A stretch of 20,000 nucleotides of DNA, from the sequence record SRR31156797_962, one strand, 5' to 3'. The position numbers and the translations under genes are program-made. The number at the start of each line of letters is the position of its first letter. Within the stretch, counting starts at the first letter, position 1. This document shows, piece after piece, positions 5,179 through 11,604 of the stretch. The notes below the pieces were generated by a model. That model had not been told where the DNA came from and made no database searches. It worked only from the letters and a program-made list of their open reading frames with translations.

Positions 5179-5622
5179 TTACTGTCCCATTCCTATTCTC
5201 AGTGCGCGGTTGAACATCCTTTTGGCGGAGTCCACTGCCTGCGCGTTGGCTTCGTAAGATCTGCTGATGCTGATCATGTTGACCATTTCTTCAACCACGT
5301 TGATGTCCGGGTATCTGACGATTCCTTTTTTATCCGCATCAGGGTGGTTCGGCTCATAAACTTCTTTGAAAGGGCGGGTGTCGGAGACGATGCCTCGAAC
5401 TGTTACGCCCCGGAGTTGTTGATTGAGCTGTTGGTTCATAGCGGTTTCAAAAGGTGAGAGAACAGGGCTTGACTCCATGGAAACACTTTTGCGGCGGTAG
5501 GCTCCGCCTTCGGCTGTCCGTGTAGTCTTGGCGTTAGCCATGTTCATAGACACAACGTTCAGGTACTCCCTCTGGGCTTTGAGCCCTGAAGCTCCGATAT
5601 CAAGTGCTGTGAAGAAGTTCAT
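5179..5622 (-). CDS. flgC: Flagellar basal-body rod protein FlgC
   Basis: 147 aa with IGASGLKAQR..NMANA, YRRK, YEPNHPDAD, PDINVVEEM and SRSYEAN motifs. TAATG stop/start overlap with flgB. Confidence 0.97.
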   Translation of the reverse strand: MNFFTALDIGASGLKAQREYLNVVSMNMANAKTTRTAEGGAYRRKSVSMESSPVLSPFETAMNQQLNQQLRGVTVRGIVSDTRPFKEVYEPNHPDADKKGIVRYPDINVVEEMVNMISISRSYEANAQAVDSAKRMFNRALRIGMGQ

Positions 5623-6032
5623 TATCTTGCTCCGCTCTGGATAATCTTACTCATGCCCTGAAAATTTTTCCCGATAACCTGAGAGAGGGCATTGTAGTAA
5701 AGAGTGTTCTTGGCCATTGCGACCATTTCTTTATCCATGTCGACTCGGTTTTCACCGTGAATGACTCTGGGTTCGAAGTTGGATAGAACATCCCCTTCAA
5801 ATTTATTTGCATCAAAGGCTGTGGGAATGTGCATCTTGCTGGTTCTTGTCATTTTGCCTTTGGCATCAAGGCCCATTGCTTTCTGAAGGTCGTCTTCAAA
5901 CTCAAGGCGTTTTTCCTTGTAGCCGGGGGTGTTGACGTTTGCCAGATTGGAGGAGACAAGGTTTTGACGCTGAAGTCTGAGGTCGAGTACTTTGCCTGTC
6001 AATTGTATGTGGCTGCCAAAAAGTCCTTTCAT
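5622..6032 (-). CDS. flgB: Flagellar basal-body rod protein FlgB
   Basis: RQNLVSSNLANVNTPGYK and NRVDMDKEM motifs. Start moved from 6068 to ATG 6032 (MKGLFGSH..., 136 aa) because AGGAGG lies just upstream of it. Confidence 0.96.
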   Translation of the reverse strand: MKGLFGSHIQLTGKVLDLRLQRQNLVSSNLANVNTPGYKEKRLEFEDDLQKAMGLDAKGKMTRTSKMHIPTAFDANKFEGDVLSNFEPRVIHGENRVDMDKEMVAMAKNTLYYNALSQVIGKNFQGMSKIIQSGAR

Positions 6033-6109
6033 GTGTATATCCTCCTGCAAAAAATTCCCGGTGCCCATCTGGGTCGGAATGAATTGGTGATTTCGTTTGA
6101 TTTGTAGTT

Positions 6110-6349: not shown

Positions 6350-6904
6350 ATGAGTCATTTAGATTACGAAATTAACAAGGAACTCGGTGAGTGTTATCTG
6401 TTCATGGGTGAACTGGATAAGGCTGAAGATTACTACAAGAAGGCTGCCGGCTCTAACGGTGTGCATCCTGATCCTTACATCGGGCTTGCCACTATCGCAG
6501 TTCAGCGTGGTGAGTATGATGCTGCCATGTCTCTGTACGAAAAAGCACACACAGTGGAAGCCACTGATAAGAGCTTTGCCGGTATGGGACTGATCCAGAT
6601 GGAAACCTCACGTCAGGATGAAGCTTTTGAAAACTTTTCTCAGGCTCTCGACATCAACATCAGCAACATGGTTGCTCTTTTCGGCATCATCAGAATCGGT
6701 CACGAGGCTGAAAGAATGGCTGAAGCTATTCCTTTCCTCGAGAAGTTTCTCGAAGTTGATCCCGAGAAGCACGAAGTCCGCTACTCTCTTGCAGGTCTTT
6801 ATATCTGCATGGAGCAGAAGGATGAGGCTGTCGAGCAGCTTGAAATGATCCTTGAAAAGGATCCCGCAAATGATGCGGCTAAGGAACTGCTGAGCCAGAT
6901 TTAG
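6350..6904 (+). CDS. Tetratricopeptide-repeat protein, function unknown
   Basis: 184 aa with about five 34-aa TPR-like units (LG..Y...G..D.A..YY.KA; YSLAGLY....Q..EA...LE.IL..DP). GGAGG SD. Confidence 0.88.
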   Translation: MSHLDYEINKELGECYLFMGELDKAEDYYKKAAGSNGVHPDPYIGLATIAVQRGEYDAAMSLYEKAHTVEATDKSFAGMGLIQMETSRQDEAFENFSQALDINISNMVALFGIIRIGHEAERMAEAIPFLEKFLEVDPEKHEVRYSLAGLYICMEQKDEAVEQLEMILEKDPANDAAKELLSQI

Positions 6905-7074: not shown

Positions 7075-7674
7075 ATGGATATGTTGCCTGTAAAGCGTGG
7101 AGTTCTCAGTGTTACTGATAAATCCGGGCTTGCTGAATTTGCGGCTGAGTTGGCTGGCTTCGGTGTGGAGCTCATCAGCACCGGCGGCACAAGAAAAATG
7201 CTTCTTGATGCCGGACTTGAGGTCAAGTCTGTAAGTGATGTTACCGGTTTTCCTGAAATCATGGGTGGCCGTGTAAAGACCCTGCACCCCAGCGTGCATG
7301 GCGGCATTCTTGCGGATAAGGATAATCCGGAACACCTGTCGACTCTTGATGAGCATGGAATCGAGACTATCGATATGGTTTGCGTTAACCTGTACAATTT
7401 TGCCAAGGCTGTTAGCGAAGGGCAGGATCTGAAGAACGCTGTCGAGCAGATCGACATCGGCGGTCCTACAATGCTGCGTGCTTCAGCCAAAAATTTTCAT
7501 TCTGTTCTGGTTATCCCCAGTCCGGTACATTACCCCCGTATTCTTGAAGACATGAAAAAGAACGATGGCAAGGTTTCTCTCGACCTGAGAAAAGACCTCG
7601 CCGCGGAAACTTTTGCGCTTGTTTCCGAATACGATTCCATGATCGCCAAATATCTGGCAGATCACGACGCTTAG
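7075..7674 (+). CDS. Stand-alone IMP cyclohydrolase / MGS-like domain protein (N-terminal half of PurH)
   Basis: 199 aa with LSVTDKSGL, STGGT, TGFPEIMGGRVKTLHP, VNLY and IDIGGPTMLRASAKN motifs of the PurH IMPCH domain. No AICAR transformylase domain; clean stop followed by a terminator. Confidence 0.9.
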   Translation: MDMLPVKRGVLSVTDKSGLAEFAAELAGFGVELISTGGTRKMLLDAGLEVKSVSDVTGFPEIMGGRVKTLHPSVHGGILADKDNPEHLSTLDEHGIETIDMVCVNLYNFAKAVSEGQDLKNAVEQIDIGGPTMLRASAKNFHSVLVIPSPVHYPRILEDMKKNDGKVSLDLRKDLAAETFALVSEYDSMIAKYLADHDA

Positions 7675-7681
7675 TTTTCAA

Positions 7682-7716
7682 AAACGGGATGTCATTTTTA
7701 TGGCATCCCGTTTACT
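7682..7716 (+). terminator. Intrinsic terminator after the IMPCH gene
   Basis: AAACGGGATGTCA-TTTTTA-TGGCATCCCGTTT hairpin with one G-U pair, 7 bp after the stop codon. Confidence 0.75.
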
Positions 7717-7751
7717 ATTGTTATAAGATAAGACAATTCAGTCTCAAAAGT

Positions 7752-7788
7752 GGCGAAGCCTAAATAAAAGGGTTTAAGCCGCGGAGGC
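7752..7788 (-). repeat. Degenerate REP-like intergenic repeat
   Basis: Minus strand reads GCCTCCGCGGCTTAAACCCTTTTATTTAGGCTTCGCC and shares its CCTCCG(G)CGG head with the element at 9483-9520. Confidence 0.45.
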
Positions 7789-7808
7789 AAAATACTTGGA
7801 GAATTCCC

Positions 7809-9452
7809 ATAGCTCTTAAAGCCAAAGGAAACACTCAGGGCCTTAAGCCCAGTGAGTTGAAACGTATCAACCGCCTTGCGGACCGCCGTTACAATGCCCC
7901 CAACGGATTTACCAACGAGCAGGCCCGTGAGCTTTCTTTTCTCAGTCATGAAATCGGACGCCAGATCGGTCTGCTGATCAACAGGCAGGGCAAGCCGGAA
8001 ATGATTCTGGTCGGTGATCCGGGGTCAATTTATATTCCCGAACTGCCTAGATCCCGGCAGTCCGAAGGACGCTTGCGCGGTTTAAGGCTTCTGCATACCC
8101 ATATTTCCGGGGAAAACCTGTCCGAGGAAGACCTTATGGATATGGTTTTTCTGCGTCTGGACAGTGTCAGTGTTATCACTTCCAACCCCCATGGCGAGCC
8201 TGATTTCGTACAATACGCTTACCTACTTCCTCCTGGAGCAGGGACGAAACCGTATGAACAGTTGTCTCCGGTTCGTTGGGATCGTGCGGATATGGATCTT
8301 CCGAGCCAGATTAAAGCTCTTGAAGATGAATTTCGCCGTGCGGATCGTACCCGCGATACCACGGATAAACGTGAGCGGGCTATTGTGGTCAGTGTTTCAC
8401 AGGATCCCAAGTCCGTGCAAGAACGTTCCCTTGATGAGCTGGAAGACCTTGCCGATACCGCAGGGCTGAAGGTTGAAGGGCGTTTGGTACAGCGTATCCG
8501 TAAGCTCAATCCGAAATTTATCATGGGTAAAGGTAAGCTTGCGGAGCTGGAAGTTATTGCCCTGCAGGCTGATGCAGAGGTTATCCTTTTTGATCAGGAG
8601 CTTTCTGCCGCACAGATGCGCAACCTTGCCAAGCTGACTGAGCGTAAAATTATTGATCGCACACAGTTGATTCTTGATATTTTCGCCCAGCATGCCACTA
8701 CCCGCGCTGGTAAGTTGCAGGTGGAAATGGCACAGCTGAAATATACTATGCCCCGTCTTGTGGGCAAGAACCGGGCTATGTCCCGGCTCATGGGTGGTAT
8801 CGGTGGTCGTGGTCCCGGTGAAACCAAACTGGAAATCGACCGTCGTCGCATTAAGGACAAACTGACCAAGCTTGGCAAAGAGCTGAAAAAAGTAAGCCGG
8901 CAGCGAGGATTTACCCGTGAACGCCGCGCCCGTGCCGGAGTTCCCGTTGTATCGTTGGTCGGTTATACAAACGCAGGCAAGTCCACCCTGCTCAACACCT
9001 TGACCAATAGTGGAGTGTTGGCTGAAGACAAGCTCTTCGCTACCCTCGACCCCACCAGCAGACGTATCCGTTTTCCACGTGAGCAGGAATTGATTCTTAC
9101 GGATACCGTTGGGTTCATTCGCCAATTGCCCGTGGAATTGAAAGAAGCCTTCCGGGCTACTTTAGAAGAATTGGAAGCCGCCGACGTGCTGCTTCATGTC
9201 TGCGATTCTTCACATCCTGAAGTTGATGAGCAGATCGCGGCGGTGGATAACATCATTGCTGATATGAAGCTTGGTGATGTGGTGAACATTCTCGTACTTA
9301 ACAAATGGGACAAGCTTGATGATGAGCAGCGCGAACTTATGCGCAACACTTACCCGCAGGGCATTCCGTCCAGCGCAGTGAATCGTCGTTCATTAAATGT
9401 TCTGGTGGAAGAAATTCTTAATGCCATCGATAGACTCGGTCATAAGTTCTGA
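7809..9452 (+). CDS. hflX: Ribosome-splitting GTPase HflX, long form with N-terminal extension
   Basis: GYTNAGKST (G1), LFATLD (G2), DTVGF (G3), NKWD (G4), DRTQLILDIFAQHA and GGIGGRGPGETKLE. The ORF track starts at TTG 7857; start moved to ATA 7809 (547 aa, see findings). Gene identity is more certain than the start site. Confidence 0.95.
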   Translation: MALKAKGNTQGLKPSELKRINRLADRRYNAPNGFTNEQARELSFLSHEIGRQIGLLINRQGKPEMILVGDPGSIYIPELPRSRQSEGRLRGLRLLHTHISGENLSEEDLMDMVFLRLDSVSVITSNPHGEPDFVQYAYLLPPGAGTKPYEQLSPVRWDRADMDLPSQIKALEDEFRRADRTRDTTDKRERAIVVSVSQDPKSVQERSLDELEDLADTAGLKVEGRLVQRIRKLNPKFIMGKGKLAELEVIALQADAEVILFDQELSAAQMRNLAKLTERKIIDRTQLILDIFAQHATTRAGKLQVEMAQLKYTMPRLVGKNRAMSRLMGGIGGRGPGETKLEIDRRRIKDKLTKLGKELKKVSRQRGFTRERRARAGVPVVSLVGYTNAGKSTLLNTLTNSGVLAEDKLFATLDPTSRRIRFPREQELILTDTVGFIRQLPVELKEAFRATLEELEAADVLLHVCDSSHPEVDEQIAAVDNIIADMKLGDVVNILVLNKWDKLDDEQRELMRNTYPQGIPSSAVNRRSLNVLVEEILNAIDRLGHKF

Positions 9453-9644: not shown

Positions 9645-9863
9645 ATGGCTAAAGAAGAAGGTATTGAGGTAGAGGGTATAGTACAGGAAGCATTGCCCAA
9701 TGCGATGTTCAAGGTAGAGCTTGAAAACGGGCATGTTATTCTGGGACATATTTCCGGCAAAATGCGTAAATATTACATCCGCATTCTGCCGGGTGACCGG
9801 GTCAAGGTAGAGCTTTCTCCATATGACTTGACCCGAGGGCGGATTACTTTCCGCATGAAATAA
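9645..9863 (+). CDS. infA: Translation initiation factor IF-1
   Basis: 72 aa [30 protein letters not shown]...[38 protein letters not shown] 9645 preceded by GGAGGA. Confidence 0.98.
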
Positions 9864-10653: not shown

Positions 10654-11604
10654 CTAATTGGCTTTACGATTTTCGATCAACCGGATGGCTTTTTCCGGCA
10701 GCAAATGTAAATCCGGTTTGGAAATCTGGTCATCTGCACCAACAGATTCTCCTTTGTGGCGAAGTTCTTTAGTAATGATAGAGGAGTAGAGAATGATAGG
10801 CAGATCTTTAAGATCCTGATCGTCCCTGATCCATTTGGCAAGGCTGAATCCGTCCATAAGTGGCATTTCAATGTCTGAGATAACGATTTCGACGTAATCT
10901 TTTACCGGGCGATTCTCTTGCTTGGCAACTTCTTTGATATTTTGCAGAGCTTTTCGAGCTTCTTCCCCATTGTGAACAATGGTGTGTCTGAAATTAGCCT
11001 TTTGAAGGCTTTTATCCAACATGGCCCGGATAGTAGGCGAGTCGTCGCAGACCAAAGCATTATATGCTTCGGTTGCAACTGCCGAAGGCGCATCAAAGTC
11101 ACCGCCGAGAGTGGGGTCGAGATCAGCGAGTATGGATTCAAGGTCCAACAGTTGGATGAAACGGTCTTCGCGTTCAACTATGCCCACAATACAGCTGTCA
11201 TCGAAGCTGCTCATAAATTTGTCGGGTGAAAGGACCTGTTGCCAGCCGACACGATGGATCTCAGTTACCCCGCTGACCTGAAATCCTGATACGGTCTGGC
11301 TGAATTCAGTTACGATGACGATATCGTATTTCTGTTTCTTGCGTTCCATTCCCAGCCATACAGCAAGATCCAGAACAGGCAGGATGTGATTGCGCAGGGG
11401 AATTGTTCCCATGAAGCACGGATGCTCTGCCGATTCGGGGTGCTCAAGCTCAGGGCTTTCGATTACCTGCATGACCTTGGCGACGTTAACCCCGAAATGG
11501 CATCTCTCTTCCGGTCCGTCTTCCGATTCGGGCAGGTCGATGTAAAATTCAAGAATTTCAAGTTCATTGGTGCCGGTTTCGAGCAGGATTTCTGTTTTTG
11601 CCAT
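10654..11604 (-). CDS. cheV: Chemotaxis coupling protein CheV (CheW + receiver), paralog 1
   Basis: 316 aa with ILLETGTNELEILEF and FGVNVAKV in the CheW domain; receiver with CDDS, SDIEMPLMDG and DQISKP. Confidence 0.93.
   Translation of the reverse strand: MAKTEILLETGTNELEILEFYIDLPESEDGPEERCHFGVNVAKVMQVIESPELEHPESAEHPCFMGTIPLRNHILPVLDLAVWLGMERKKQKYDIVIVTEFSQTVSGFQVSGVTEIHRVGWQQVLSPDKFMSSFDDSCIVGIVEREDRFIQLLDLESILADLDPTLGGDFDAPSAVATEAYNALVCDDSPTIRAMLDKSLQKANFRHTIVHNGEEARKALQNIKEVAKQENRPVKDYVEIVISDIEMPLMDGFSLAKWIRDDQDLKDLPIILYSSIITKELRHKGESVGADDQISKPDLHLLPEKAIRLIENRKAN

Follow-up and report, generated by a model that had tools for sequence, protein, structure and literature searches.

We propose that the gene for the long form of the GTPase HflX in the DNA stretch SRR31156797_962 (20,000 nucleotides, referred to as a whole as the window, and apparently from a Maridesulfovibrio-type genome of a sulfate reducer) is very probably initiated at ATA 7809, and that the first canonical in-frame start, TTG 7857, is an internal leucine codon. 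In the mechanism that we favor, the 30S subunit would dock on the GGAG at 7798-7801 and the initiator tRNA would then read ATA 7809, giving a HflX of 547 amino acids (aa) whose first 16 residues would be part of a conserved and folded N-terminal domain. Judged from the comparison of orthologous sequences, an isoleucine-type start (ATA, ATC or ATT, collectively ATH) behind a well-spaced and usually strong Shine-Dalgarno (SD) sequence is an old and selected feature of hflX, and it is found in ~98% of the sampled Desulfovibrionales and in about three quarters of a sample drawn from the phylum. What the codon is used for is less certain, and below we weigh a response to initiation factor IF3 against a simple limit on HflX synthesis.

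The hflX start region and its orthologs in the Desulfovibrionales

The frame of hflX is closed upstream by a TAA at 7761-7763, and 31 codons separate it from TTG 7857 (ATA AAA GGG TTT AAG CCG CGG AGG CAA AAT ACT TGG AGA ATT CCC ATA GCT CTT AAA GCC AAA GGA AAC ACT CAG GGC CTT AAG CCC AGT GAG). An earlier note on this DNA, made from the sequence alone, had claimed that this interval lacks a standard start, and direct reading of the codons confirms that none of them is ATG, GTG, TTG or CTG. There are three in-frame ATH codons, ATA 7764, ATT 7803 and ATA 7809, and the frame translates as IALKAKGNTQGLKPSELKRINRL, in agreement with the earlier note. The same note had also placed GGAG 7798-7801 seven nucleotides (nt) before ATA 7809, which is the spacing that is read directly, and had assigned HflX 547 aa from AUA, which is the correct length for 7809-9452. 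Its statement that TTG 7857 is without a well-spaced SD holds as well, in that positions -16 to -4 of this codon (ccttaagcccagt) contain no GGAG, GAGG or AGGA. The stretch upstream of Leu17, ALKAKGNTQGLKPSE, is present in the ATA-start product and not in the TTG-start product. Initiation at ATT 7803 was considered and rejected, as relatives do not conserve this codon and it is only 1 nt past the GGAG.

Searching species genomes with a profile of the N-terminal 95 residues gave 331 relatives, of which the best 80 loci were kept; counts for the Desulfovibrionales refer to 79 of these (L061 could not be parsed) together with the window, giving a total of 80. The codon aligned to ATA 7809 is ATC in 45, ATA in 33, ATT in one and ATG in one, and an SD 4-mer lies at -16 to -4 of the aligned codon in 76 of the 80 loci, compared with 186 of 1944 (9.6%) internal in-frame isoleucine codons in the same genes and 12.7% of all positions. 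The combination of SD and ATH codon exceeds chance. In 53 of the 79 loci neither ATG, GTG nor TTG occurs between the upstream in-frame stop and the aligned codon, while the remaining 26 have some canonical codon upstream of it. The upstream stop can be very close, at a distance of only 2-8 codons in L007, L006, L069, L038, L040 and L004, and it lies 2-10 codons before the isoleucine codon in 26 of the 79 loci.

Where the coding sequence begins is also indicated by the information profile of the 60 loci that share one register. Information is ~0 bits upstream of -14 and peaks at the SD (-12 to -9), and conservation with 3-base periodicity rises sharply exactly at the ATH codon. Position -10 is G in 50 of the 60 loci and position -1 is C in 46, and codon 2 is GCN in all 60. 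Three close loci (L001-L003), in which the N-terminal 95 residues are 96-98% identical to those of the window, all have ATA as the start codon. The DNA ahead of the SD is unalignable between the window and four close relatives, and the differences from the ATA to the TTG are all synonymous and all at third positions. In other orthologs the next canonical start downstream is found anywhere from +4 to +55 codons away, or not at all within 60, and hence no homologous downstream start exists. Taken together, this pattern is what marks a start codon, and it excludes a private mutation, a sequencing error and a non-coding leader. The earlier note had proposed that an SD followed by ATA, ATC or ATT should precede the conserved motif in orthologs, and this is what is seen (76 of 80 loci with the SD, 79 of 80 with ATH). 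It had also named findings that would speak against its reading, among them ATG at this position in close orthologs and initiation at TTG 7857; as described above, only one of the 80 loci has ATG and L001-L003 have ATA, and conservation and codon periodicity begin at the ATA and not at the TTG. As a side observation, locus L070, from a metagenome-assembled genome of an uncultured Pseudodesulfovibrio (nt 1501-2085), has a single in-frame stop among its first 195 hflX codons, possibly an assembly error or a broken gene.

On a FastTree phylogeny of the 80 proteins, from which the start codon was omitted, at least 17 changes of this codon are required, comprising ~15 exchanges between ATA and ATC, one change to ATT and one to ATG, compared with 26-31 changes on the same tree when the start-codon labels are shuffled. 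The initiator tRNA inserts formyl-methionine whatever the start codon. A change to ATG would thus be silent in the protein, and the scarcity of such changes points to selection acting on initiation; we consider it likely that there is selection against AUG at the hflX start. The choice among isoleucine codons is also biased, as ATA is strongly over-used at the start (33 of 80, compared with 133 of 1944 internal isoleucine codons) and ATT is nearly absent from it (one of 80, compared with 452 of 1944 internal codons, where ATC accounts for 1359). Within the Desulfovibrionales ATA is thus preferred and ATT avoided; elsewhere in the phylum ATT is common at the start.

To what extent the feature extends beyond this order can be seen from a sample drawn evenly from the phylum, in which the same profile matches 315 of 401 genomes. 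The sample of 100 loci was drawn from 150 of these 315 matches; the 13 best were omitted because their scores suggested the order sampled above, and 10 others were passed over, mostly near contig ends or with short open frames. An ATH codon is present five or six codons before the motif glycine in 73 of the 100 loci (ATC 35, ATT 29, ATA 9), of which 72 have an SD and 56 are without a canonical start after the upstream stop. Six loci fall into neither the ATH nor the canonical class: L105, which is cut, L106 and L161, which could not be parsed, and L135, L166 and L172, in which ACG stands four codons ahead of the motif glycine, behind an SD (AAGAGG or AGGAAG), and both ATH and canonical codons are absent. 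From their sequences the last three probably start at ACG. Taking all 150 ATH loci together, 143 of 149 have an aligned SD spacing of 5-9 nt, and in 119 of 150 the SD matches over 5 nt or more. The distribution of these sequences indicates that the non-canonical start of hflX is widespread and old, yet not universal. Possible relatives in other phyla, namely Nitrospirota (0.87), Vulcanimicrobiota (0.86) and Cyanobacteriota (0.79), were indicated by the ESM Atlas and are leads only.

HflX and its N-terminal domain

The identity of the gene product as the long form of HflX is established by sequence and predicted fold, from which ribosome splitting by this protein is predicted. Residues 190-538 of the 547 match the NCBIfam equivalog model for HflX, TIGR03156, with 450.7 bits against a cut-off of 216.75, and the Pfam domains PF13167 (GTP-bdg_N, 103.6 bits), PF16360 (GTP-bdg_M, 102.3 bits) and PF01926 (MMR_HSR1, 79.3 bits) follow in this order, all above their cut-offs. 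The closest proteins are annotated as HflX of Maridesulfovibrio and Desulfovibrio, with 86-94% identity. The full-length AlphaFold model has a mean predicted local distance difference test score (pLDDT) of 82.8, and the best Foldseek match is 8uua_v (E 3e-34, target-normalised template-modelling (TM) score 0.73, 362 columns), with GTPBP6 also among the matches. Superposed on 8uua, 8a57, 7yla, 8vk0 and 5ady, the model gives target-normalised TM scores of 0.67-0.74 over ~360 columns at 38-46% identity. The HflX and HflXr proteins of Escherichia coli, Listeria and Mycobacterium, which have been solved on ribosomes, are like the protein described here in the core fold and in the match to TIGR03156, but they are without the ~189 additional N-terminal residues that form a domain of their own in this protein. 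The N-terminal extension of mycobacterial HflX, which is only 39-58 aa in length according to PMC12493154, is not the same element.

The beginning of this additional domain is precisely the part that a TTG start would remove. The GN..GLKPS segment, which the earlier note had likened to the conserved N-terminus of long-form HflX and whose lack of conservation would have spoken against its reading, is indeed conserved, with G7, G11, L12 and K13 invariant and N8 and P14 present in at least 90% of the sequences in alignments of 15, 61 and 41 members. Residues 1-16 are modeled with pLDDT values of 89-97, and the first 20 residues with values of 80-97 across two models. A strand is predicted at residues 5-7 and a helix at 14-25, and TTG 7857 encodes residue 17, so that a start at the TTG would cut into the helix.

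What this domain might do is suggested by its predicted fold and conserved residues rather than by any sequence family. Residues 1-189 have no match to a Pfam or NCBIfam family, sequence and profile searches of the PDB gave nothing, and none of 41 members matches the JAB, Prok-JAB or RadC models of Pfam at E values up to 10. The model of residues 1-195, based on 41 orthologs, is confident (pLDDT 88.9, predicted TM score 0.84), and in Foldseek searches of the PDB it matches CSN5, the MPN domain of Npl4, the Jab1 domain of Prp8, Rpn11 and PfJAMM1, with E values from 2.4e-4 and TM scores of only 0.25-0.38. An all-against-all fold search (VIA) places PfJAMM1 (5ld9_A) at the top, with a Z score of 7.0 and a root-mean-square deviation of 3.0 over 105 aligned residues, followed by RadC (Z 6.1), AMSH/Sst2 (5.9), a bacterial Ubl-deubiquitinase (5.2), AfJAMM (5.1) and Rpn11 (5.0), where a Z score under 8 may mean merely a common arrangement.

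The metal site of JAMM proteins is characterized by the motif E-xn-H-x-H-x7-S-x2-D. The domain of the long-form HflX proteins has a conserved pattern E41...H96-x-H98-x6-S105-x2-D108, in which E41, H96, H98 and D108 are invariant and S105 is present in at least 90% of 61 aligned sequences, and in which H96, H98 and D108 are invariant and E41 is present in at least 90% of an alignment of 41. The domain model thus matches JAMM/MPN proteins (PfJAMM1, AfJAMM, Rpn11, CSN5, RadC and AMSH) in two independent fold searches, and its E/HxH/S/D pattern resembles the JAMM motif, though with 6 residues rather than 7 between H98 and S105. As sequence models detect nothing and the fold scores are middling, we refer to the domain as JAMM-like and not as a JAMM member. 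It may be a hitherto undescribed domain with a metal site, joined to a GTPase that splits ribosomes.

Comparison with infC and the rival explanations

The infC gene, which encodes the initiation factor IF3, is the obvious comparison. According to PMC5499595, IF3 autoregulation acts on the AUU or AUC start of infC, and 30S initiation complexes on AUU, AUC and AUA are destabilised by IF3. The two genes, both of the translation apparatus, are alike in having a conserved isoleucine-type start preceded by a good SD, but one encodes an initiation factor and the other a ribosome-splitting GTPase, and because HflX is not an initiation factor any control of hflX by IF3 would act in trans and would not be autoregulation. 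In the genomes of three relatives, G001, G002 and G003, the infC start (L141, L142 and L143) is an ATA 8 nt after GGAGG or AGGAGG in the context GCT ATA GCT, and in G002 a canonical infC start is absent before the conserved core. The infC start was read in 25 more genomes (L184-L208), giving a total of 28. Among the 13 genomes with an ATH hflX start, infC is ATH in 10, ambiguous in two, possibly CTG in one and clearly canonical in none, and among the 15 with a canonical hflX start it is canonical in eight and ATA or ATC in seven. A canonical infC is thus found in eight genomes, and hflX is canonical in all of them.

Since IF3 destabilises complexes on AUU, AUC and AUA, HflX synthesis should be below the level given by AUG and should respond to IF3. 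In the mechanism that this suggests, the ATH codon would lower HflX synthesis relative to AUG and make it sensitive to the start-codon proofreading of IF3, and hflX would then share its control input with infC. The earlier note had suggested that HflX synthesis may sense initiation-factor or ribosome status. From this reasoning a real IF3-sensing role of the hflX start is possible, and we put it forward tentatively, with somewhat less than even confidence. A broader version, in which hflX and infC would form a small start-codon regulon under IF3 proofreading in the Desulfovibrionales and much of the phylum around them, and the JAMM-like domain would couple splitting to the hydrolysis of a ribosome-bound substrate, we consider unlikely; if true, it would mean that the supplies of the 70S-splitting factor and of the subunit-anti-association factor are set together.

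A number of observations weigh against this line of argument. Canonical starts are found in 21 loci of the phylum sample (ATG in 15, of which seven have an SD 4-mer, TTG in four and GTG in two), and the ATG lineages, with N-termini such as MSYTVYGN and MSKTLHGN, have the methionine at the homologous place. A full-length query from an ATA-start lineage (L209) retrieved relatives named Desulfuromonas, Desulfuromusa, Geoalkalibacter, Syntrophotaleaceae and Pelovirga, and 93 of 120 Desulfuromonas-type models begin with M or V three residues before the glycine. The protein thus needs no weak start. The eight genomes in which both infC and hflX are canonical are small (1.5-2.3 Mb), AT-rich in the stretches read and probably of one or two clades, and the partial agreement of infC and hflX in start type is confounded by phylogeny and is a lead. 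In addition, as seven of the 15 genomes with a canonical hflX keep an ATA or ATC infC, the two start types are not strictly linked. The direction of the response is also a difficulty, as the ratio of IF3 to 30S would increase if idle 70S ribosomes reduce free 30S, and hflX would then be repressed and not induced. Finally, according to the abstract of PMC5499595, an AUA mRNA whose initiation region had been optimised matched AUG and UUG mRNAs in vitro, and the same paper cites another construct in which the efficiency of AUA, AUU and AUC was 5-7.5%.

The rival explanation that survives best accepts the ATA start and gives it a different purpose, namely that of a fixed throttle, in which a weak codon combined with a strong SD sets a low and constant level of a potentially harmful splitter and IF3 has no role. 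We regard this as a serious possibility, short of being the expected answer. The avoidance of ATG, to which only one of the at least 17 codon changes leads, fits it, as does the presence of an SD with 72 of 73 ATH starts compared with seven of 15 ATG starts in the phylum sample, as expected if the SD compensates for a weak codon, and so does the retention of ATA or ATC by infC in seven of the 15 canonical-hflX genomes. On the other side, infC uses the same type of codon in the same genomes, and a clearly canonical infC occurs in none of the 13 genomes with an ATH hflX. Moreover, because the discrimination of IF3 against AUU, AUC and AUA is general (PMC5499595), some sensitivity to IF3 would be hard to avoid.

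The other rivals dispute the start itself. Two isoforms might be made, with ATA 7809 giving a minor long form and TTG 7857 a short one without the first 16 residues, since weak upstream starts can permit ribosomes to load further downstream and the TTG is conserved in the genus-level group. This is highly improbable, as the TTG has no SD, most orthologs lack a homologous downstream start and the truncation removes part of a folded domain. A start solely at TTG 7857, yielding a HflX of 531 aa behind a conserved but non-coding leader, we judge to be scarcely probable. It can appeal to the fact that this is the first canonical in-frame start, that the RefSeq models P0003, P0004 and P0007 use it (they begin MKRINRL) and that it is identical in the five closest sequences, and its conservation and use in these models speak against initiation at the ATA and leave room for a minor second start at the TTG. 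However, there is no SD 4-mer at -16 to -4, the 16 codons before the TTG show only synonymous third-position changes in congeners and 3-periodic conservation across the 60 loci, these codons encode the invariant G7, G11, L12 and K13, no homologous downstream canonical start exists in orthologs, and the TTG is inside a confidently predicted helix. To a start still further upstream, at a near-cognate codon or by frameshifting from the out-of-frame TTG 7796 with the isoleucine codon internal, we give next to no credence, even though a second GGAGG (7783-7787) sits 8 nt before that TTG and 60 of 120 database models extend beyond the motif, because the TTG 7796 frame ends after seven codons (MENSHSS*) and L003 and L001 lack the element, 26 of 79 loci have an in-frame stop 2-10 codons before the isoleucine codon, sequence conservation is absent upstream of the SD in the 60 loci, and the database extensions differ in length and sequence. 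The GGAGG 7783-7787 and TTG 7796 were likewise rejected as an upstream mini-ORF (open reading frame), on the same absence from L003 and L001.

The start at ATA 7809 is thus the reading that we carry forward, and gene annotation has not been uniform with respect to it. Among the 120 closest gene models, 60 extend upstream, with extensions of variable length and unrelated sequence, 45 are without the motif, five begin between the anchor position and the motif and 10 begin at the anchor. The NCBI model P0025 is identical to the ORF of L029 read from the ATC that is homologous to ATA 7809, and the NCBI pipeline has therefore called an ATH start at least once. The RefSeq models of the genus begin mostly with MKRINRL or MKPSE.

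Comparable cases are few. Besides infC, the other classical gene with an AUU start is pcnB of E. coli. Non-canonical starts in Deinococcus deserti were reportedly confirmed by proteomics by Baudet et al. in 2010; these are similar in that housekeeping genes with starts other than ATG, GTG or TTG are mis-called by gene finders, but the organism and the genes are different. A full-text literature search, covering text outside subscription journals and supplements, found no paper on hflX with a non-canonical start, including in combination with AUU and IF3, Desulfovibrio or JAMM, and a search for non-AUG starts together with infC gave no paper describing the hflX case.

Neighboring genes and implications

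The features of the window that bear on hflX, together with its neighbors, are listed in Table 1. With the end of the upstream gene at 7674 and the hairpin after it, hflX has its own leader, ~95 nt in length past the hairpin. The purH-like ORF upstream keeps mainly the N-terminal part of the protein. An RNA structure or thermometer in the leader was considered and rejected, as the fold of 7725-7850 has a z value of -1.93, with eight of 200 shuffled sequences as good, and the upstream sequence is unconserved. The proximity of infA is also not part of the proposed mechanism: G002 has two copies of infA, one of them adjoining hflX as in the window, while G001 and G003 keep their sole copy elsewhere. 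The flagellar, TPR and CheV-like neighbors have no evident tie to hflX.

Table 1. Positions of hflX, its start region and neighboring features in the window.
Feature	Position	Strand	Basis or remark
Flagellar rod proteins (FlgB/FlgC-like), TPR protein, CheW-plus-receiver (CheV-like) protein	5179-6068, 6350-6904, 10654-11604	-, +, -	Neighbors
Short purH-like ORF, 199 aa	7075-7674	+	MGS-like domain and first 59 of 311 positions of the AICARFT/IMPCHase model
Terminator-like hairpin, strong, 14-pair stem	7682-7713	+	After the purH-like gene; start of the hflX intergenic leader
In-frame TAA closing the hflX frame upstream	7761-7763	+	16 codons before ATA 7809; same frame as TTG 7857
Shine-Dalgarno core GGAG	7798-7801	+	7-nt gap (aattccc), then ATA 7809; aligned spacing 6
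ATA, proposed hflX initiation codon	7809-7811	+	Ortholog codon alignment, conservation onset, homologous NCBI model start
hflX coding sequence, 547 aa and stop (predicted from ATA)	7809-9452	+	Translation, family models, fold
Clade-specific N-terminal domain, residues 1-189 (predicted)	7809-8375	+	Fold searches, conserved residues
TTG, first canonical in-frame start, read as internal Leu17	7857-7859	+	Start in the ORF list (531 aa)
infA (IF1, 72 aa)	9646-9863	+	~190 nt downstream of hflX; ATG 9646 behind GGAGG; ORF list starts at TTG 9609

If the long form of HflX begins where we propose, structural and biochemical work designed from its truncated or spuriously extended gene models would use the wrong N-terminus, and the part that is mis-cut is from a domain that is still uncharacterised and has a conserved His-x-His...Asp site. 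Bacterial genes known to retain an isoleucine-type start over a long evolutionary distance are very few, with infC as the textbook case, and hflX would be a second gene of the translation apparatus that does so, across a phylum. It would thereby be a candidate for the control of a ribosome rescue factor by IF3 at the level of the start codon.

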